This document shows, in pieces, positions 7,930 to 64,000 of a stretch of 64,000 nucleotides of DNA. Source of the DNA: Naegleria gruberi (lineage: Eukaryota); the NCBI GenBank assembly GCA_000004985.1, contig GG738924.1; one strand, given 5' to 3'. Position 1 is the stretch's first letter. Each line of letters opens with the position of its first letter. The notes beneath the pieces were generated by a model. That model was not told the DNA's origin and made no database searches. It saw only the letters and a list, made by a program, of their open reading frames with translations. A program made the position numbers and the translations under genes.

Positions 7930-8139
7930 TTTTTTTCTTGGTTTTGGCGTACTTGAACATTTTTATTTTTGGGTTACAAAATACACTTCGAATTTTCGCT
8001 GGAACTCAAAGAAAATTTGCAGTAATCGGTGGTTTCACACTTTAAAAAAAAACGAGTTCTCATTCCAACAAGTAACACCCACGCAGTTGTTGTAGTTTGG
8101 AAGAGGAACTTTGAGATTTTTGCAAAAAAAAACAAAAGT

Positions 8140-8174
8140 GGAGTCATAGGGAATCGAACCCTAGACCTTCTGCA

Positions 8175-8205
<31 letters not shown>

Positions 8206-8211
8206 AACCCC
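8140..8211 (-). tRNA. tRNA-Ala (anticodon UGC)
   Basis: The reverse complement reads GGGGTTATAGCTCAGTTGGTAGAGCGTCTGCTTTGCATGCAGAAGGTCTAGGGTTCGATTCCCTATGACTCC. It is a cloverleaf with a G3:U70 Ala identity pair, anticodon loop CTTGCAT carrying TGC, T-loop GGTTCGATTCC and A73. A T-run terminator on the minus strand lies just 3' (+ strand 8120-8137). Confidence 0.9.
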
Positions 8212-42669: not shown

Positions 42670-44145
42670 ATGTCCCTCAAACTCCAAGTCTATGAAGATG
42701 TGGCTGAACAACAACAACAACAATGGCCTGATGTTTCCCTCCGTAAGCAACTCTCCCAATCCGACCCCAAATGGTTCATCAAGCCTTCTAATTATTCTCA
42801 CTTGGCAGAGTTGGAGATTTATCCAAGAGTTTTCCTTGGTTCTCAGTGGGAAGCAAAGGATCCAGACTGGTTTCAAACTCACAGAATTTCCCATGTTTTG
42901 AATGTGAGTACGCTGCAGAATACCTTCCAGAAGAAGCCTTTGTATTATAGTAATTTATCAACAAATTCCTCATCGGATCCAGAGAATACAAATCCAAATA
43001 TTATGATGATGAATAGTATGAGTAGTGGTGGTAGTCATAGTGTAAATAAGAATACAACATTGAGTGGTAAACAACAGGTACATGTAAATTATTTAAAGAT
43101 TAATGTTGATGATTCGACGGATGTGAATGTGAGAAAGTACTTTGAAAAGGTGATTGATTTTGTGAGGGATGCTTTGGAAGGATCCCCAACAAGTAATGTT
43201 TTAATTCATTGGTATGTTTTGTTGTTGTTTGATGATGAAGTTAATAATAATATTATTGTTGTTATTTGTTATATTGATGATGTTTGAAATAGTAAGGAAG
43301 GTAAATCTAGATCAGTGACCATGATGTTAGTGTTCGGAATGGCTTACTTTGATTTATCACTCTATGAAGCATATAAACACTTTGAAAATAAGACTTTTAA
43401 CAGATCGAGAATTAATTTGGGATTTCAATTACAATTGATGAATTATGAAGTGGAATTGTTGGAGGCAAAAGGTGTGGAAAAACCAAAGAATTCGCTGGAT
43501 TTCCTTAATCAAGCAGCAGTTAATAGTTGTCGTAGTAATGTTACACAACCTCAACCAATTCAAATCACAACAACAGAAGAACAATCAAAGAGACCTCGAA
43601 GAAATACCAAAAAGACACCACTCTCGGATATTACTAATACTGGAGCCACTACTTTACAGCCACCACCATCAAAAGCAAAGAAATCTACTGTTAAGGTACT
43701 TCCAAAGAAGACAAAGAATGCAACAACACCTATTCCACAAATAATTCCACCAATAATTAATATTGAAGAAGATATTCCTGAAATACCCTCAATTGTTGAG
43801 AATAGTAGCATCTCAATAGATCAACAACAAGAAAACCAACCTGTTACACCTTTGAGAAGTCCAATAAGATCGAGAAGATCGAGTCGTAAAACACCTTCTT
43901 CTATCATTAAGATTCCATTCTCAACACTGGACAATGCATCCTATGTTTCTCCAATGAAAAACAAGATGCCACCAACACCATTGGGAACTCCTTCTATCAC
44001 TAATGACATTATAATAGATGATTATTCTACATTGGAATTTAAATTTGATGAGGATGATTTGGAAATTTCTAAAGGACTCGAAGATAGAGTATTCATGACA
44101 ACTCCACTCAAAAAGAGAAAGACTGACGAAGATATTATGCAGTAA
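42670..44145 (+). CDS. Dual-specificity protein phosphatase with an S/T/P-rich C-terminal tail. Exon1 is 42670..43211, the intron 43212..43292 (GTATGT..ATAG, 81 nt) and exon2 43293..44145.
   Basis: The intron splits the catalytic-cysteine codon. Splicing gives VLIHCKEGKSRSVTMMLVFGMAY (HCxxGxxRS P-loop). The upstream DUSP-fold elements (IYPRVFLGSQWEAKD..ISHVLNVS) and the downstream AYxxL..region are present. The track shows 42670..43287 and 43315..44145. Confidence 0.85.
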
Positions 44146-44566
44146 ACAAACAACAAATTAATTTATTTAATCAGAAATCAATTCCCTTCTCTATTATGAT
44201 GTGAAAAAAACCAATTTGCAAAGAAGCATGGAATTCATCAAATACCAAACTAAATACCAAAAGGTGAGGGTATACAATGGATTTAATCAAAGGAACGGAT
44301 AAAATTGATTTCTGATTCTTCATCCTTCCTTTCACTTCTGTGAACATGTATTGAACTACTTTACACACCACCAATCAAAAGTTAAACGAAATCGTTTTGG
44401 AAAGAGAGATTTATTGTAAAAATGACTCGTACTAATCCTGGTTGATCAATGACATTATAATCAACTGTTATGGGAATAATTAGTAACACCATGTTCGAAT
44501 CCTTTAAATACAGTCATTGTAACAACAAGCGAAATCAATTTTAAACAAAAAATATTCGAAACTTAA

Positions 44567-45094
44567 ATGACTGATCACGCTGAATTATTCAAACCAAAGA
44601 CTGGAGGCTTAGCTTTCAAGAGAGCTGCCAATGAACTATTCGAATACACCATCGTTGATGCTACCAATGCCTTGAAAAGTTACAATAGCAAAATGATTCT
44701 CCTCATTGACTGGGATTCCCTTTCGAATATTCCAGCCGAATTAAAGTACAAGTATGGAGATACTGATAATGAAGAGAAAGCTCTCGATAACATTATGAAA
44801 TTCCTCAAGAACTCCTCCAGATTGAAGAGTTTGGGTGATTTAGTAATTTGGGAATTCGTCCAAGATTCGGATTGTAAAGAAGCATTTCAAGTATTGGACA
44901 AGTTGATTTTCAGAGTTGTTCATAATGAGAATGATATGGATCATTCTGGTGCTCATGGATATACCTATCAAGTTAAAGGAAGTGAATTGATTGTAACTTT
45001 GGAATGTAATGTCACTCAAGTTATTCAATATCAATATGAAGGTTGGACTGTTGACAGATTTGAAGAAGTTAAAAAGTTGATGGCTTGTTTCTAG
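44567..45094 (+). CDS. Hypothetical protein
   Basis: 175-aa ORF with ATG at 44567. Coding-like composition. No recognised domain. Confidence 0.5.
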   Translation: MTDHAELFKPKTGGLAFKRAANELFEYTIVDATNALKSYNSKMILLIDWDSLSNIPAELKYKYGDTDNEEKALDNIMKFLKNSSRLKSLGDLVIWEFVQDSDCKEAFQVLDKLIFRVVHNENDMDHSGAHGYTYQVKGSELIVTLECNVTQVIQYQYEGWTVDRFEEVKKLMACF

Positions 45095-45371
45095 GTCAAG
45101 TGAGAATTGTGAAAAAGAAATTGGATTAATATTCAATAAAGAGAATTTGATAGTATTTATGATAGTTTCGAATATTCTATCGAATGGCTAGGTGTTACGA
45201 CTAAATGAACACCGAATATACGGCATACGAGGAATAAGAACAAAATGAATGTTTGACAAATCTTTTCAGAGGACAGGATGTTTAAACAATTGTTACAATA
45301 AATCCGATTTCAGACGAATCTTCACTCAACAACATTCAACAGAATTAAAACTTAAAAAAAATCAACACGCC

Positions 45372-46926
45372 ATGGACTCATCCACTCAAATTCGTCGTTT
45401 ACAAGTTATCAAATCTCATTTATATCAAGAGAATTCATCTTGGTCAACCAACATTGATTCTAATAATTGTGCAGCAACTTCTTCATGTCCACCTTCACCA
45501 ACACTTCTGGCCATGACCAAGGAAAAGATGGGAACAGGAATTCCCAATCAGAGACAAAAATTGGCCAAGTGGAATGGTTGGGATACAAGGACACAGATTT
45601 TACAATGAATTCCAAGAGGGAATGTTATGTGACTGGTGACAGGTACGTGATTGCTGGACAGTGTGTGCCAAATTTTCGTCCATGGTTTGAGAATTTCACT
45701 GGTTTGAATACAAAATTCGAATCTTCAATTCAATCATGGTCAGAAATGAAACAAAAAATTGAAAAGCCAAATATTTGTGAAAAATTTATTGAGGATTTAA
45801 GGCAAGTCAAATGTTACAAATATTTGACATTTGATGATGAGGCTCGTTTGATGCATTCTCATGGACATTGTTGTCAAGAGATTTATCAATTAAGATTTGG
45901 AAGATATGTTGGTAAATGTCAAGATTGTCACTCCAAAGGGAACTTGGTTTCTTCCATGTAATGTCCCACACAAGTCAACTGGACCAGATTTGATGCAGCT
46001 ATTTATGGGATCTGAAGGAATTTTGGGAATTGTGACAGAAGTGACATTAAGAGTAAGGAAATGTCCTGAATGTCAAGTTTATGGCTCTGTGTTGGTTCCT
46101 GATTTTGAGGCAGGAGTTGCTTGTCTTCATGAAGTTTCGAATAGAAGAGTTGCTACTGCTTCGATTCGTCTAATTGACAATTCTCAATTTCAGTTTGGTC
46201 AATCACTAAAACCTAAACAAGAAAGTAAGCTTGAAGGCCTTAGTGATTGGTTTAAGGGTTTGTACGTTACTAAGGTTTGTGGATTTGATAAGGAAAAGAT
46301 GTGTGTCATTACTTTATTATTCGAAGGAAGTCAATCTGACATTGACAGGCAACAGAAAATTATTTATGACATAACTGCTAAATATGGAGGACTTGTGGCA
46401 GGTGCTGAAGCTGGTTATCGAGGTTATTTACTGACCTATGTCATTGCTTATTTGAGAGATTATGGTTTCAATTATTATTTCATGTCAGAAAGTTTTGAAA
46501 CTTCAGCTCCTTGGTCAAGAGTCGTTCCAATAATCAAGAAAGTAGAAGAAAGAGTCAAAGAAAGTGCCAAGCAACGAGGATGTTCCAACACCATGGGTTT
46601 CGGCTCGTGTCACTCAAGTATACGAAACTGGTGCCTGTATCTATTTCTATTATGGATTCATCTTTAGAGGATTACAAGATCCAATTAAGGCATTCTCAGA
46701 GATTGAAGCTGAAGCAAGAGATGAAATCTTACTTCAAGGTGGAAGTTTATCTCATCATCACGGAGTTGGAAAGCTCAGAAAGGAATGGATGAGTCAAGTG
46801 GTGGGAGATCAAGGAGTTGAGATTTTGAAAAAGTTAAAGAATAATGTTGATCCTGATAATTTGTTTGGAAATGGAAATTTGGGATTGACTAGAGCTGATT
46901 TGAGTATTTCGGCAAATATCGAATAA
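45372..46926 (+). pseudogene. AGPS: Alkyldihydroxyacetonephosphate synthase (AGPS, peroxisomal ether-lipid enzyme) pseudogene or degraded copy. It has two frameshifts and lacks most of the FAD-binding PCMH domain.
   Basis: Three overlapping frames (45249..45608, 45467..45961, 45897..46667, 46564..46926) together read like AGPS. The N-terminal PTS2-like RRLQVIKSHL and KWNGW are present, but a missing G in a G-run breaks KWNGW|GYKD (~45582). HGHCCQEIYQLRFG is followed almost directly by EDMLVNVKIVTPKG (~45890), so the ~150-190 residues normally between them (the GGG..FAD-binding core) are absent. A +1 shift near 46578 separates ..ESAKQRG from VPTPWVSARVTQVYETGACIYFYYGF. The conserved C-terminus GGSLSHHHGVGKLRKEW..DPDNLFGNGNL is intact. 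Confidence 0.75.
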
Positions 46927-47019: not shown

Positions 47020-48009
47020 TTAAAGGTTTCGAATAATTCCAAAATACTTTTCCAAAATGTCCCACAACTCTTCCTCACTTTCAATAGTACGCTCTGTCAC
47101 ATTTCCCAACTTTCTAATTGTGAATTTTCTATCAACAATCGAATATCTACCTTCAGAAGTCATTAAGGCAACCAATACTATTTTAGTTTGTCCATGATTT
47201 GGATTCGTAGTTGCATACCAAGCTCCCAATTCAGCATCTAACAATGACATGATATTATCTTCTTCAAAATGCATGATATCCCACCATTCAGACTCTGGTT
47301 TGTTTTTATATTGAAGAAACCATTTCTTTTGGACAAGTTGACCATTTTCTTCATTGACATCTTGATGATTGATATTGGCACCAGTTTTAAATCGGTAGCA
47401 ACCCCACTTGTCATGATTTAATTTCGTACTTGTAAAAATCTTTCCCAAAACCAAACGAAATACCTCGCCAGTATTTTCACTCTTTTCACAACCATTACTT
47501 AAAAGGAGCGGAGATCTTGGTTGACCACCCCATCCCAAACCATTATCAACCAGATATCTATTTCCATCTTGACAATCAACCAAGAGAGCCATGTGTGTAG
47601 TGCAACTCAATGGCAATCCACTGTCCAATTCTGGAGCTACGAAACGATTGAGAAGTTTCACGCCAACTGTCGTGACAGAAAATCCAAATTCACGTAAAGC
47701 TCTGGCCAAGAGTAAGTTTTGTTCAAAGCAAAATCCTCCACGAGATTTCAATACGAGCTTGGTAAAGATATCATTTGGATCGAGGGAAACTTTGATTGAA
47801 TCTGGGAGGGAAGAATCTGAACTAAACATGCGCATCTCTGGATAAAGAGTTGCCAAATTTTCGAATGGAATGTGAATGGCATGATTCCATGAAATGGTGT
47901 GTAATAGAGAATAAGAGTTGCCACATGTGTCAATCAATTGTTTTTCAACATTTTCACGAGAAACTAAACCAATACGGTTGAGATAACTGTCAATATCAAA
48001 TATGTCCAT
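47020..48009 (-). CDS. Arylamine N-acetyltransferase (NAT family)
   Basis: 329-aa ORF with ATG at 48009. Contains the NAT active-site region RGGFCFEQNLLLARALREFGF (catalytic Cys in RGG-x-C-F-E-x-N), the downstream His/Asp region and overall NAT length. Confidence 0.82.
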   Translation of the reverse strand: MDIFDIDSYLNRIGLVSRENVEKQLIDTCGNSYSLLHTISWNHAIHIPFENLATLYPEMRMFSSDSSLPDSIKVSLDPNDIFTKLVLKSRGGFCFEQNLLLARALREFGFSVTTVGVKLLNRFVAPELDSGLPLSCTTHMALLVDCQDGNRYLVDNGLGWGGQPRSPLLLSNGCEKSENTGEVFRLVLGKIFTSTKLNHDKWGCYRFKTGANINHQDVNEENGQLVQKKWFLQYKNKPESEWWDIMHFEEDNIMSLLDAELGAWYATTNPNHGQTKIVLVALMTSEGRYSIVDRKFTIRKLGNVTERTIESEEELWDILEKYFGIIRNL

Positions 48010-48223: not shown

Positions 48224-48311
48224 GGGTGGTTAGCTCAGCGGTAGAGCACCGGATTGCAAAGTTATTTGCAGCAGACATCCGATGGTCAGGTGTTCGATCC
48301 ACGTACCACCC
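48224..48311 (+). tRNA. tRNA-Cys (anticodon GCA) with a ~17-nt intron 3' of position 37
   Basis: GGGTGGTTAGCTCAGCGGTAGAGCACCGGATTGCAAA[gttatttgcagcagaca]TCCGATGGTCAGGTGTTCGATCCACGTACCACCC. The acceptor stem is fully paired, the anticodon loop TTGCAAA has U33 and A37, the T-loop is TTCGATC and the discriminator is U73 (a Cys identity element). The intron contains TTGCAG, which can pair with the anticodon region. A TTTT terminator follows 8 nt downstream. The isotype call depends on the intron placement. Confidence 0.7.
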
Positions 48312-48631
48312 TACCTTTTAATATTATGCAATAGTAAATAATTTATTTATTGTGTTGTCAACGATTCCTTAGTTTCGATCTTTAAATTTGTTGAAAAATA
48401 GAGAGAATTCTATTTTCTTAAATATTGCCTTGAAGAATATTGATTTGACTTGTAATTTGAAATATGAGTTGAAAAGTAAAATAGTAAATTGAAGTATTAG
48501 GGGAAATCAGATTTCTATCCAAATTTGGAACCTTACATCTAACTTTTTGAGTTTGTTCCAAATGAAAAACTATTCGAAATGGTTTAAATTATCACCATCG
48601 TTGAACTATTCCATACAACAAAAACAAAAAA

Positions 48632-58552: not shown

Positions 58553-61315
58553 TCATTGAATTTTCTTTCCGAAAATTGAATCCTCCCATGACTCATTAAA
58601 TAATTCATCTAATTCTTCGTCATAATCGCCAAGCTCAATTTTAGAGCTCTTCTTGGGTTCAGATTGAAAACCTTCTGATTCCGAAAGTGGGCTTTGTGGT
58701 TCAAATTCTACTACATGTAAATGTTTCAATCTAGCAACAAGTATAGCTCTGTAATTTGAAATAGAAAATGGTTTGGTCATAATATCGACGGCATCAGATA
58801 GTGAAAATCCTGCTGAAAGAAAATCCATTAGTAATACACAATAATCACCACAATGATTTCCATCCACTTGAATTTTTTTTTGTAATGTTTTTCGAACAGT
58901 CTTTGGTTTTACAATAAATGATGGCAACATTTCAAATAATTCACTAGTCTCTGATTCTATCACTGAAAAATCCTTAGCGAAAGAATCAAAAAGAAACCAA
59001 TCAGTGGATTGACAATCATAGATTAGTAAGTACCAGTGTAATGATCTTGCCACAGGAAAAATTATAAATCCTTTTGATGTAAATTTCATACTCTTTGGTA
59101 AGTTTGTTTCTATGAATTTTTTGGATTGGTTAGTAACTCTTTGAGAGAAATCAGACGGTATGTATTGTAAATATTGTGAGCTGATTTTGGAAAAACAAAT
59201 TCCAAATATATCAAAAGTATTTCCAGGTAAGAATACAGTGTCATCTTTGATAGTCTCCAATGCCTCAGTAGATAAAGTGATTGAACAAGCAATTGTTTCT
59301 GTTGAAAGAACGTACAATTGTAGATTGGCAGCATTTTGTTGGATGTTATGGTTAAATTCTGTTTTGTTTTGTATGTGAAGTATTATTTTAGATATTTGTT
59401 CTACCTGTTTTTGGTCAAAATTTTCTTTCATGGAATCACTATCAATCCAAGGATTGTTTACATCATCTAAGATGGGATCTTGATCTAATTTCTCATCTGT
59501 CTCTACCTTAACTGATGGTGTAGGTAGTTCTACATAGAATTGACCAATACACATAGGATTAAATTCTCTGATATATAAATCATACAAATCATTATTCATT
59601 TTCAGTGAAGCTCTGACATACTTCAAGTATTCCTCTTCTGAATCATAATTCCAAATATCCATTAAACATTTTCTAAAACTATTTACAATCACATCTGGAT
59701 TCATGTTAGAAATAATCTGCTCAAATGCTGCATTTCTTGATTTTCTATCAGAATTAGAATTATTCTTTTTCCAATCAGCTAATTCTCTTTTTGCATATCT
59801 GAAACACATATTATCCAATGGTGATTGATGGTGCCCACCTACAGGAAGTAAAATGTTAATTCTATTATGTTGTTTCAAAATCTTTTGAACTGATTTACAC
59901 TTATGATGAGAGAGATTATCCCATAATAAAATGTCTCCTTCTTTTGAATTAGGAATATAAACTTTTTCAACCCATTGCTCAATATGTTCAATATGAACAC
60001 CAGCAATTTTTTCCTCAACAGTTACCTTATTACCATTAATAGTTGATTTCTTTCCTGGCACTGACTCAACAATAGACACTGGTAATACACCTCCTTCTGC
60101 CGTTACAGCAACTAAAAAAGTATCCTTAATATCATCAGCCAATTGTAAAACAACTGCATCATCGTCCTTGATTGGAGTATTTGTTCTTTCCGTCGCCTTA
60201 GTATTTGTTCCAGTTTCATCAAAAACCACAATTTTACTTCTATCAATGGATTTTAAATTTCTAAACATTATTGCTGCATAGAAGCAATAATAATAGTAGG
60301 TTCTATATAATTGCTCATAAGCTGTTTCAATTCTTTCTCTCTTGGTAATTGTTGTTTTGATCTTCCTTTTATAAAGAAACTTCTTGGAAAATTTGGAAAT
60401 ATAATCTACTGAAGGTGTTTTCTTTAATCCTGCAACTTCCTTCATTATTTCTCCAAGTCTTATATTACTAACTTGTTTTTTCTCACTCCGTTCCTTACGA
60501 GTAATATCAATAACCTGTAAAATTTGGTCTTTCAATAATAATGGAGGTGGGTGACCACGTTCAACCTTTAATGTTAGTTCATTCCTCTTGCATGCCGATA
60601 AATATCTGCTAAATTGTGAAGGTGAGATATTATTTTGTTTAGCAAATTCCTGTTGTGATCCACGGTCGGGTGTTGAATATTGTTCTTTATACTTCTCAAC
60701 AAGTTTAATTTGTTCTTCTCTTGTTTTTTGAACATAACCAACTTTTCTTTTGTTTTTAAACCCTATCAATACTATTTTATCATCAGGATTTTCCTTTTTT
60801 TCTGTCTCCTCCAGGTTTACCAGTTTTGCTTTCTTTGCTTGACTTTCATTGTATGTTTCTTGATTCCGTTCAACAATTAATAGGGCTTTTTTTTTGATGT
60901 TGTCTTCGAATGACTCATCTCTTTCATCCGTCTCTTCCTCAACAGAAGAACAAATTCTAGTTACCAATTTTGCTACCAGAGCATCTTTTCTAAGATTACC
61001 TCCTGTCTCTCCAAATTCACTCTTCAAAAACTCCTTCAAAAACTTGACATTTTTCATTGTCAATTGATCATGGATTGCCTCTTCCACATTCTCAAACTTT
61101 CGTTTTGTTCCTTTTTTTAGCTTCTTTGGTTTTTCTTCTTTTTTCTTGCCTGGTGTTTTTTCATCTTTCTTTTTAATGGGTGTGTTATCTGGTTGATCTT
61201 GTGTACAGGTCCATGAAGGAACTTGAGATACTGAAGGTAGCAAATCTATTAAATTGCTATAGCTGGAGAAGCTTTGTGGTGAAGTGTCATAGCTACTCGA
61301 TTGCTTGTTTGACAT
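58553..61315 (-). CDS. Transposase fusion protein: CENP-B/psq-type HTH domains + pogo DDE_1 transposase (DDD triad) + C-terminal Ulp1-like C48 cysteine protease domain
   Basis: ATG at 61315. HTH region: YSTPDRGSQQEFAKQNNISPSQFSRYLSACKRNELTLKVERG. DDE_1: KIVVFDETG .. ILLWDNLSHHKCKSV..INILLPVGGHHQSPLDNMCFRYAKREL. Ulp1/C48: HWYLLIY..D..QVDGNHCGDYCVLLMDFL (His/Asp/Gln/Cys). Confidence 0.85.
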   Translation of the reverse strand: MSNKQSSSYDTSPQSFSSYSNLIDLLPSVSQVPSWTCTQDQPDNTPIKKKDEKTPGKKKEEKPKKLKKGTKRKFENVEEAIHDQLTMKNVKFLKEFLKSEFGETGGNLRKDALVAKLVTRICSSVEEETDERDESFEDNIKKKALLIVERNQETYNESQAKKAKLVNLEETEKKENPDDKIVLIGFKNKRKVGYVQKTREEQIKLVEKYKEQYSTPDRGSQQEFAKQNNISPSQFSRYLSACKRNELTLKVERGHPPPLLLKDQILQVIDITRKERSEKKQVSNIRLGEIMKEVAGLKKTPSVDYISKFSKKFLYKRKIKTTITKRERIETAYEQLYRTYYYYCFYAAIMFRNLKSIDRSKIVVFDETGTNTKATERTNTPIKDDDAVVLQLADDIKDTFLVAVTAEGGVLPVSIVESVPGKKSTINGNKVTVEEKIAGVHIEHIEQWVEKVYIPNSKEGDILLWDNLSHHKCKSVQKILKQHNRINILLPVGGHHQSPLDNMCFRYAKRELADWKKNNSNSDRKSRNAAFEQIISNMNPDVIVNSFRKCLMDIWNYDSEEEYLKYVRASLKMNNDLYDLYIREFNPMCIGQFYVELPTPSVKVETDEKLDQDPILDDVNNPWIDSDSMKENFDQKQVEQISKIILHIQNKTEFNHNIQQNAANLQLYVLSTETIACSITLSTEALETIKDDTVFLPGNTFDIFGICFSKISSQYLQYIPSDFSQRVTNQSKKFIETNLPKSMKFTSKGFIIFPVARSLHWYLLIYDCQSTDWFLFDSFAKDFSVIESETSELFEMLPSFIVKPKTVRKTLQKKIQVDGNHCGDYCVLLMDFLSAGFSLSDAVDIMTKPFSISNYRAILVARLKHLHVVEFEPQSPLSESEGFQSEPKKSSKIELGDYDEELDELFNESWEDSIFGKKIQ

Positions 61316-62642: not shown

Positions 62643-64000
62643 ANNNNNNNNNNNNNNNNNNNNNNNNNNNNNNNNNNNNNNNNNNNNNNNNNNNNNNNNN
62701 NNNNNNNNNNNNNNNNNNNNNNNNNNNNNNNNNNNNNNNNNNNNNNNNNNNNNNNNNNNNNNNNNNNNNNNNNNNNNNNNNNNNNNNNNNNNNNNNNNNN
62801 NNNNNNNNNNNNNNNNNNNNNNNNNNNNNNNNNNNNNNNNNNNNNNNNNNNNNNNNNNNNNNNNNNNNNNNNNNNNNNNNNNNNNNNNNNNNNNNNNNNN
62901 NNNNNNNNNNNNNNNNNNNNNNNNNNNNNNNNNNNNNNNNNNNNNNNNNNNNNNNNNNNNNNNNNNNNNNNNNNNNNNNNNNNNNNNNNNNNNNNNNNNN
63001 NNNNNNNNNNNNNNNNNNNNNNNNNNNNNNNNNNNNNNNNNNNNNNNNNNNNNNNNNNNNNNNNNNNNNNNNNNNNNNNNNNNNNNNNNNNNNNNNNNNN
63101 NNNNNNNNNNNNNNNNNNNNNNNNNNNNNNNNNNNNNNNNNNNNNNNNNNNNNNNNNNNNNNNNNNNNNNNNNNNNNNNNNNNNNNNNNNNNNNNNNNNN
63201 NNNNNNNNNNNNNNNNNNNNNNNNNNNNNNNNNNNNNNNNNNNNNNNNNNNNNNNNNNNNNNNNNNNNNNNNNNNNNNNNNNNNNNNNNNNNNNNNNNNN
63301 NNNNNNNNNNNNNNNNNNNNNNNNNNNNNNNNNNNNNNNNNNNNNNNNNNNNNNNNNNNNNNNNNNNNNNNNNNNNNNNNNNNNNNNNNNNNNNNNNNNN
63401 NNNNNNNNNNNNNNNNNNNNNNNNNNNNNNNNNNNNNNNNNNNNNNNNNNNNNNNNNNNNNNNNNNNNNNNNNNNNNNNNNNNNNNNNNNNNNNNNNNNN
63501 NNNNNNNNNNNNNNNNNNNNNNNNNNNNNNNNNNNNNNNNNNNNNNNNNNNNNNNNNNNNNNNNNNNNNNNNNNNNNNNNNNNNNNNNNNNNNNNNNNNN
63601 NNNNNNNNNNNNNNNNNNNNNNNNNNNNNNNNNNNNNNNNNNNNNNNNNNNNNNNNNNNNNNNNNNNNNNNNNNNNNNNNNNNNNNNNNNNNNNNNNNNN
63701 NNNNNNNNNNNNNNNNNNNNNNNNNNNNNNNNNNNNNNNNNNNNNNNNNNNNNNNNNNNNNNNNNNNNNNNNNNNNNNNNNNNNNNNNNNNNNNNNNNNN
63801 NNNNNNNNNNNNNNNNNNNNNNNNNNNNNNNNNNNNNNNNNNNNNNNNNNNNNNNNNNNNNNNNNNNNNNNNNNNNNNNNNNNNNNNNNNNNNNNNNNNN
63901 NNNNNNNNNNNNNNNNNNNNNNNNNNNNNNNNNNNNNNNNNNNNNNNNNNNNNNNNNNNNNNNNNNNNNNNNNNNNNNNNNNNNNNNNNNNNNNNNNNNN
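62643..64000. other. Assembly gap (1358 N)
   Basis: Run of n characters to the end of the window, directly adjacent to the repeat elements. Confidence 0.99.

Follow-up and report, generated by a model that had tools for sequence, protein, structure and literature searches.

A probable recently inactivated copy of a second alkylglycerone-phosphate synthase gene in Naegleria gruberi NEG-M

A stretch of 64,000 nucleotides of Naegleria gruberi DNA (hereafter the window) contains a gene for alkylglycerone-phosphate synthase (AGPS, or alkyl-DHAP synthase) whose reading frame is broken and whose central part is missing, which raises the question of whether this is a decayed gene, a fragment that still serves some purpose, or a flaw in the assembly. 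The sequence-only reading of this DNA had considered a young pseudogene implying loss or relocation of ether-lipid synthesis, a second degraded paralogue, or a local mis-assembly. Our analysis favors the view that the locus is very probably a recently inactivated, non-functional copy, either a pseudogene or a null allele, of an AGPS gene that we call paralogue B, and that it still occupies its original chromosomal position. The window is composed of ~34% G+C and is dense with long uninterrupted ORFs, 11 of which are exact GenBank matches to N. gruberi NEG-M proteins that all lie on one 196,593-bp scaffold. Two of its genes served as synteny anchors, both outside the degraded gene: NAEGRDRAFT_75460, 277 nt away on the upstream side, and NAEGRDRAFT_56390, an arylamine N-acetyltransferase (NAT) gene, 93 nt away on the downstream side (Table 1).

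Homology to AGPS extends through four successive frame segments (45372–45581, 45582–45901, 45900–46580 and 46582–46926), as seen from three-frame translation and the ORF list, and the longest ORFs at the locus are 119, 164, 256 and 120 aa in length. A single uninterrupted frame of ~570–690 codons, which is the range of near-full-length AGPS matches, is not present at the window locus, where the frame changes three times. When the frame is corrected, the translation matches guinea-pig AGPS (PDB 4bby) with E=6.6e-149 and Dictyostelium ADPS (PDB 2uuu) with E=1.3e-42. The match to the guinea-pig enzyme comes in two blocks, with query residues 6–181 aligning to chain residues 34–204 and query residues 176–507 aligning to chain residues 326–657, and ~120 residues of the chain are left without a match in the window product. 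Like these two representatives of EC 2.5.1.26, the window copy has a PTS2-type signal, a KWNGWGY N-terminal domain and a FAD-oxidase_C domain. In contrast to them, it lacks FAD_binding_4 and its frame is broken three times, and for these reasons it could not be an active AGPS.

Several features of a peroxisomal ether-lipid synthase that had been recognized from the letters alone are indeed retained. A nonapeptide near the N-terminus conforms by pattern to the PTS2 consensus [RK][LVIQ]xx[LVIHQ][LSGAK]x[HQ][LAF], with equivalents in N. fowleri (RLHMIGAHL) and Willaertia (RLNILGGHL), and the window product would thus carry a putative N-terminal PTS2-type targeting signal. The C-terminal block SLSHHHGVGK...DPDNLFGNGNL is present in the frame-corrected translation. 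Also kept are the residues aligned to R419, Y578 and H615–617 of guinea-pig AGPS (4bby), in which we take R419, Y578 and the HHH loop to be catalytic. The receptor PEX7 has been reported in N. gruberi (PMC7549135). The absence of the FAD-binding core was likewise read correctly: a Pfam search does not find PF01565 (FAD_binding_4) in the window product, whereas this domain is found at residues 186–327 of an intact environmental protein (P0001), and the missing domain is covered by a 398-nt deletion in the window copy.

The nature of this deletion and of the frame breaks becomes apparent by comparison with an intact orthologue. Contigs carrying it were found through the flanking genes, which have 99.4–99.6%-identical counterparts in metagenome sample ERR1078381 / ERZ929261 of project PRJEB11402. 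One contig, L006, covers window positions 43374–45544 at 97.7% DNA identity, and another, L008, covers positions 48319–45533 at 97.6–98.4% DNA identity. On L008 the NAT and AGPS genes are convergent, as they are in the window, and the AGPS ORF continues for 596 uninterrupted codons to the end of the contig; L008 alone is uninterrupted across all three sites at which the window copy is damaged. Joined by a 12-nt overlap only, these two metagenome contigs make up the composite intact orthologue, a 650-aa ORF starting MDSSTQLRRLQVIKSHL. The B locus is therefore intact, between the same flanks, in an environmental N. gruberi-like strain that is ~98% identical to the window at the DNA level. This comparison also locates the start codon, which is the ATG at 45372. 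An in-frame ATG further upstream, at 45249, is not conserved and is not the true start, because a 4-nt insertion in the orthologue between the two ATGs breaks the upstream extension. The extent proposed earlier for the locus, 45249–46926, was hence accurate at its 3′ end and is corrected at its 5′ end.

Table 1. Positions in the 64,000-nt window of the degraded AGPS gene, its lesions and retained features, and the two flanking genes.
Feature	Position	Strand	Basis
NAEGRDRAFT_75460, upstream flank, 175 aa, synteny anchor	44567..45094	+	Exact GenBank match; 99.4%-identical orthologue in L006 directly 5′ of the intact AGPS-B start
Degraded AGPS paralogue-B gene, ATG to TAA	45372..46926	+	Full-length alignment to the intact syntenic orthologue of 1953 nt (L006+L008)
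PTS2-like nonapeptide RLQVIKSHL, residues 9–17	45396..45422	+	Read from the sequence; fits the consensus by pattern
Lesion 1: GGGG to GGG, 1-nt deletion in a G run (orthologue nt 209 absent)	45580..45582	+	Orthologue alignment
Lesion 2: junction of the 398-nt out-of-frame deletion	45899..45903	+	Orthologue alignment
FAD-oxidase_C (PF02913), interrupted by lesion 3	46065..46878	+	Pfam E=1.4e-36, residues 233–503 of the reconstruction
Lesion 3: A to GG, +1 frameshift, non-homopolymer	46578..46579	+	Orthologue CGA-AAT-GTT, window CGAGGATGTT
NAEGRDRAFT_56390, arylamine N-acetyltransferase (NAT), downstream flank, synteny anchor	47020..48009	-	Exact match; L008 has NAT beside the intact AGPS-B, convergent

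Measured against the 650-aa orthologue ORF, with one public assembly representing the window side, the window copy exhibits exactly three disabling lesions in addition to 24 substitutions in ~1554 nt (1.5%). With the first lesion, the conserved KWNGWGYKD motif is broken by a −1 frameshift (KWNGW/GYKD), and the original frame then runs into a TGA at 45606–45608. The second removes nt 530–927 of the orthologue CDS, corresponding to codons 177–309 (~133 codons) and including the whole of PF01565, and a 3-nt microhomology, GAA, is present at both of its breakpoints (window 45900–45902). Since lesions 1 and 2 total 399 nt, the original frame is restored after the deletion, but by then the TGA has already been met. 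Frame breaks had been predicted from the sequence at ~45582 and ~46578, and both correspond to real lesions (lesions 1 and 3). However, the count of two frameshifts rises to three, because the deletion itself is out of frame, and the missing segment, although real, is smaller than the 150–190 residues that had been estimated. Unambiguous homology to AGPS, together with three lesions that set the window copy apart from an intact syntenic ORF of 98% identity, is what characterizes a non-processed pseudogene or null allele. Since any single one of the lesions is enough to disrupt the frame, and the deletion takes out the cofactor-binding domain as well, the window copy would not give rise to an active alkyl-DHAP synthase. 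The exact 38-nt pattern of the deletion junction had 0 matches in JGI metagenome contigs, a collection in which a protein-guided scan detected no full-length relative above 48% identity and hence no Naegleria relatives.

If the window copy is no longer functional, it is important to know which other AGPS genes the organism has. Our search of protein collections recovered full-length, PF01565-containing AGPS proteins from N. fowleri (662 aa), Willaertia magna (660 aa) and an environmental source (P0001, 653 aa). The last of these is identical at 409/410 residues to NAEGRDRAFT_50637, a 410-aa model on a 379,849-bp scaffold that represents paralogue A in NEG-M. Paralogue A shares with the window copy its genome, the lack of introns, the domain architecture and a PTS2-like signal, but it is an intact intronless ORF at its environmental locus (L001), which is unrelated to that of the window copy. 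The two paralogues are 77.5% identical in protein and 78% identical in CDS, and their DNA homology ends at the CDS ends, with no flanking genes common to both. Much closer to the window copy is NAEGRDRAFT_54573, a 490-aa model on a 40,920-bp scaffold of NEG-M, which by cluster look-up is ~98% identical to it and which we refer to as its twin. The FAD-binding segment is present in the twin, KQRNVPTPW is in frame there, and the model is shortened at both ends, starting at residue 126 and leaving homology after residue 609. Orthologue and twin share with the window copy the motifs GTWFLP, GILG, GFDKEK, GLVAG, TSAPW and VTQVY as well as a one-codon-shorter VPTPW, and differ from it in that both keep CGA-AAT and the 398-nt FAD-domain segment, and in that GGGG is kept in the orthologue.

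On the evidence of these gene models, NEG-M has at least two predicted AGPS loci besides the window copy. All of the NEG-M AGPS models (410, 490 and 333 aa) are incomplete, and we judge the integrity of A in NEG-M from its near-identical environmental ORF and that of the twin from its partial model. A search for an intact paralogue elsewhere in the genome had been proposed when the locus was first described, and at the protein level it yields A and the FAD-domain-bearing twin, albeit as incomplete models. The suggestion of a second degraded paralogue is thereby borne out, with the window copy being paralogue B with lesions.

Paralogue B is an old gene that was long maintained by purifying selection. 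Between the window copy and A, dN/dS is 0.107 at a dS of 1.40 (saturated), and between the intact B orthologue and A it is 0.095 overall and 0.068 in the segment that is deleted in the window. Synonymous sites are also saturated among A, B and N. fowleri. In a neighbor-joining tree, B groups with A (79% bootstrap), within Naegleria and after the divergence of Willaertia, on a longer branch, whereas the alternative topology with B outside A and N. fowleri receives 21%. These comparisons suggest that N. gruberi has two old AGPS paralogues, A and B, both with a putative N-terminal PTS2-type signal, and that B is the faster-evolving of the two; it has so far been found only in the N. gruberi lineage.

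The inactivation of the window copy seems to be much younger than the gene. Relative to its orthologue, AGPS in the window has 13 nonsynonymous and 11 synonymous changes (omega 0.31), a count that includes some replacements on the orthologue's branch, whereas three flanking genes compared between the same contig pair have 4 nonsynonymous and 18 synonymous changes (omega ~0.07). The excess of replacements in AGPS over its flanks is significant by Fisher's test (p=0.016), with small counts of 24 versus 22 changes, and pS is about equal (0.034 for AGPS, 0.03–0.054 for the three flanking genes). With the twin, A, N. fowleri and Willaertia as outgroups, a minimum of five replacements can be assigned to the window copy as derived (D80N, H131E, E142D, V158A and P395T); P395T affects an otherwise invariant proline and D80N an invariant aspartate. 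Although the counts are small, the window copy thus appears to be under relaxed constraint both relative to its own history (omega ~0.1) and relative to its neighbors. No in-frame stop codon is present in the 515 codons of homologous frame. Given that 6.2% of possible point changes would create a stop and that none is seen in these codons, neutral drift would amount to less than ~3%. Inactivation is therefore likely to be recent, falling within the ~1.5–2% nucleotide divergence that separates NEG-M from the strain with an intact locus. The description of the pseudogene as young agrees with its 1.5% divergence from the intact orthologue, the lack of in-frame stops and the intact state of the locus in a 98%-identical strain.

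The following course of events would best explain these observations. In Naegleria, AGPS genes lack introns, and N. gruberi would have carried two old paralogues, A and B. In the lineage leading to the NEG-M sequence, B would then have acquired the 1-nt deletion in the G run, the 398-nt deletion with its 3-nt microhomology, and the A to GG change. Loss of the window copy was presumably tolerated because A and the 98%-identical, FAD-domain-bearing twin of B are present. We infer that the window copy is neither expressed nor functional, and that its lesions are present in the organism and not just in the assembly.

This explanation comes in two forms, which differ in the identity of the twin. 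In the first, to which we assign about an even chance, B was duplicated to the dispersed NAEGRDRAFT_54573 locus and the original copy in the window decayed afterwards, such that the gene was in effect relocated. The window copy would be the original because it is at this position that the related strain has its intact orthologue, and the flanking genes lack twins among NEG-M gene models. Moreover, two derived residues, H333 and I520, are common to the window copy and the orthologue but not to the twin, and the twin had thus already diverged when these two parted. On the other hand, the absence of flanking twins was judged from exact-match models clustered at 90%, and scaffolds of an alternative haplotype may lack models. 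In addition, the shortening of the twin's model at both ends fits contig edges or gaps.

Alternatively, and with a probability that we consider appreciable but somewhat on the low side, the window could represent one haplotype of B carrying a null allele, with NAEGRDRAFT_54573 being the other, functional haplotype that was assembled apart. The ~98% identity between the two would be in keeping with allelism, and another gene in the window (58553–61315) has a 99.6% twin on a 16,246-bp scaffold. A 398-nt indel would favor separate assembly of haplotypes, and Naegleria has been described as mainly heterozygous diploid (PMC9928731). However, neither NAT nor NAEGRDRAFT_75460 has a NEG-M twin at ≥90%, and the same is true of 11 other window genes. 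The distribution of H333 and I520 likewise argues against two alleles of one locus. With respect to the loss or relocation of ether-lipid synthesis that had been raised for this locus, loss is not supported, since A and the B twin are present, and relocation is possible in a narrow sense, in that the syntenic copy is dead and a FAD-domain-bearing twin lies on another scaffold without recognizable twins of the flanks.

A different interpretation is that the organism has an intact gene and that the draft sequence or its assembly introduced all three lesions as errors, which we regard as very unlikely. One lesion does fall in a homopolymer, gaps are present in this draft assembly (the 3′ end of the window consists of 1357 Ns, 62644–64000), and a version with the FAD domain is found on another scaffold. 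Nevertheless, there are three independent lesions in a span of 1 kb, an assembler would find no repeat to collapse at the deletion junction, where the microhomology is just 3 nt long, and the change of A to GG in lesion 3 does not involve a homopolymer. The gene-specific excess of replacements at conserved sites is also not something that artefacts produce. Furthermore, we take the NEG-M assembly to be derived from ~8x Sanger shotgun reads, in which homopolymer errors would be rare.

Even less probable, in our estimation, is that the truncated gene remains functional, for instance as a regulatory or binding subunit that does without FAD binding. The public model for the degraded gene (NAEGRDRAFT_82100, EFC36883.1, XP_002669627, UniProt D2W249) is a 333-aa protein with FAD-oxidase_C only, named 'Alkylglycerone-phosphate synthase' in the databases; such a subunit could be this protein or one begun at an internal ATG at 45906. 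That GenBank and UniProt list a protein, and that the C-terminal domain keeps the residues aligned with catalytic ones and has no in-frame stop, would speak for this possibility. However, the model begins just 3′ of the deletion, with MLVNVKIVTPKG as its first residues, and then jumps from ...VVPIIKK to KVPSNEDVPTPW... across an invented intron that spans lesion 3 and hides it, although all full-length relatives examined are intronless. Without this intron, the ORF from the ATG at 45906 ends at 46667 in the wrong frame. Replacements occur at an elevated and not a constrained rate, and the missing stops are explained by the youth of the pseudogene. The locus's own GenBank model (P0004) reproduces the 398-nt deletion and the third frameshift, and NAEGRDRAFT_82100 is best seen as a predicted pseudogene fragment held together by a spurious intron.

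Several other readings were rejected. An intron carrying the missing part, which had already been thought absent when the locus was first read, is contradicted by the contiguity of the window across the junction and by the intronless state of A, the syntenic orthologue, and the N. fowleri and Willaertia genes. A scrambled gene or a rearrangement within the window is not supported, as the deleted FAD-domain segment is absent elsewhere in the 64 kb: outside the two junction flanks, tblastn with its 150 residues gave chance matches only (best E=2.9). A segmental duplication involving A, and likewise synteny with either N. fowleri or Willaertia, were dismissed in view of the end of L001 homology at the CDS ends and the lack of a shared flanking ORF. 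A processed pseudogene or retrocopy is at odds with the locus being the syntenic original and with the absence of an A tract from 46927 onward after the stop; intron loss is uninformative for this test, the full-length Naegleria and Willaertia AGPS genes examined all being intronless. Programmed frameshifting is excluded by the orthologue and all paralogues being in frame at both sites, and the FAD domain, being deleted, could not be recovered by recoding.

Taken as a recently inactivated copy of paralogue B, the locus resembles non-processed pseudogenes and null alleles of redundant eukaryotic paralogues, which likewise have disabling indels, recent relaxation after long purifying selection, and a position at the original locus. 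It appears to be a biologically ordinary young non-processed pseudogene or null allele that has been mis-annotated as a protein. The main value of the finding is thus a correction to the annotation of XP_002669627 / D2W249, and the two remaining AGPS models of N. gruberi are likewise incomplete. Our literature search encountered no mention of the three NAEGRDRAFT AGPS locus tags and accessions. N. gruberi reportedly encodes AGPS, FARAT and PEDS1 (bioRxiv 10.1101/2025.10.10.681575), and ether-lipid enzymes bearing PTS signals have been reported in this organism (PMC9512073). For surveys of plasmalogens and ether lipids in Discoba that count AGPS models, of which the former report is an example, the relevant number for N. 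gruberi would be two functional paralogue types and not three proteins. The presence of paralogue A and of the B twin in NEG-M means that loss of the ether-lipid pathway is not implied.

It is conceivable, though on balance doubtful, that NEG-M has been caught in the midst of relocating a gene, or of losing a second ether-lipid synthase that is specific to its lineage, with B dead at its ancestral site and a copy persisting on another scaffold. If the twin proves to be damaged as well, then B would be gone altogether from NEG-M but kept by its wild relatives, and the strain would represent a natural knockout for the role of a second AGPS. NEG-M is a laboratory strain that has been adapted to axenic growth. 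At the least, the locus may offer a small, cleanly dated case in which a redundant paralogue has become a pseudogene in a heterolobosean.

The start that the sequence-only reading had given to the window's AGPS copy (paralogue B), at position 45249, is an artefact of the open reading frame. An in-frame ATG at that position, 123 nt 5′ of the real start, lengthens the first ORF (beginning MFDKSFQRTG), but the resulting upstream extension is not conserved, since the intact syntenic orthologue from the environmental strain carries a 4-nt insertion (TTAA) within the matching stretch.

The two paralogues also differ noticeably in synonymous codon choice. Set against the window copy, the paralogue A loci (L001 and L002), like the AGPS of N. 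fowleri, were rich in GGT, ACT, TCT and CCA, whereas B was rich in GGA and ACA. This difference probably inflates dS between A and B (1.40) relative to that between A and N. fowleri (1.05). The codon usage also suggests stronger expression of paralogue A than of B.

Several other features of the window were recorded (see table). The downstream NAT gene (47020-48009, - strand) is shorter in the environmental strain (285 aa versus 329 aa in NEG-M), where 2 nt replace 134 nt (at L008 1127-1130); the frame is kept, and 44 residues close to the C-terminus (GQTKIV...EELWD) are lost. The environmental strain may carry a genuine deletion allele, or the difference may be an artefact of metagenome assembly. 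Another NEG-M scaffold, of 16,246 bp, carries NAEGRDRAFT_54650, a twin of NAEGRDRAFT_75468 with 99.6% identity (916/920); AGPS excepted, every other window gene looked up lacks a comparable twin. The pattern hints that alternative-haplotype scaffolds are patchily present in the assembly, or that it contains recent duplications.

Coordinates of features in the window
Feature	Position	Strand	Remarks
tRNA-Ala(TGC)	8138-8211	-	ARAGORN, its only tRNA
Upstream ORF extension of AGPS copy	45249-45371	+	
NAT segment missing in environmental strain	47060-47193		
tRNA, 89 nt	48224-48312	+	Rfam, 46.9 bits; absent from ARAGORN output; probably an intron-containing nuclear tRNA
NAEGRDRAFT_75468	58553-61315	-	920-aa protein
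N throughout	62644-64000		last 1357 positions, no readable sequence; assembly gap or padding

None of the three public AGPS models for N. gruberi is complete. Compared with the intact environmental form P0001, NAEGRDRAFT_50637 (P0009, paralogue A) is missing residues 1-53 and 263-451 but is otherwise identical at 409 of 410 positions. NAEGRDRAFT_54573 (P0121), the twin of B, begins at residue 126 and ends in a non-homologous tail (LLDAIN), and NAEGRDRAFT_82100 (P0004), the model of the window copy, uses a spurious intron. The AGPS annotation of N. gruberi needs to be redone.
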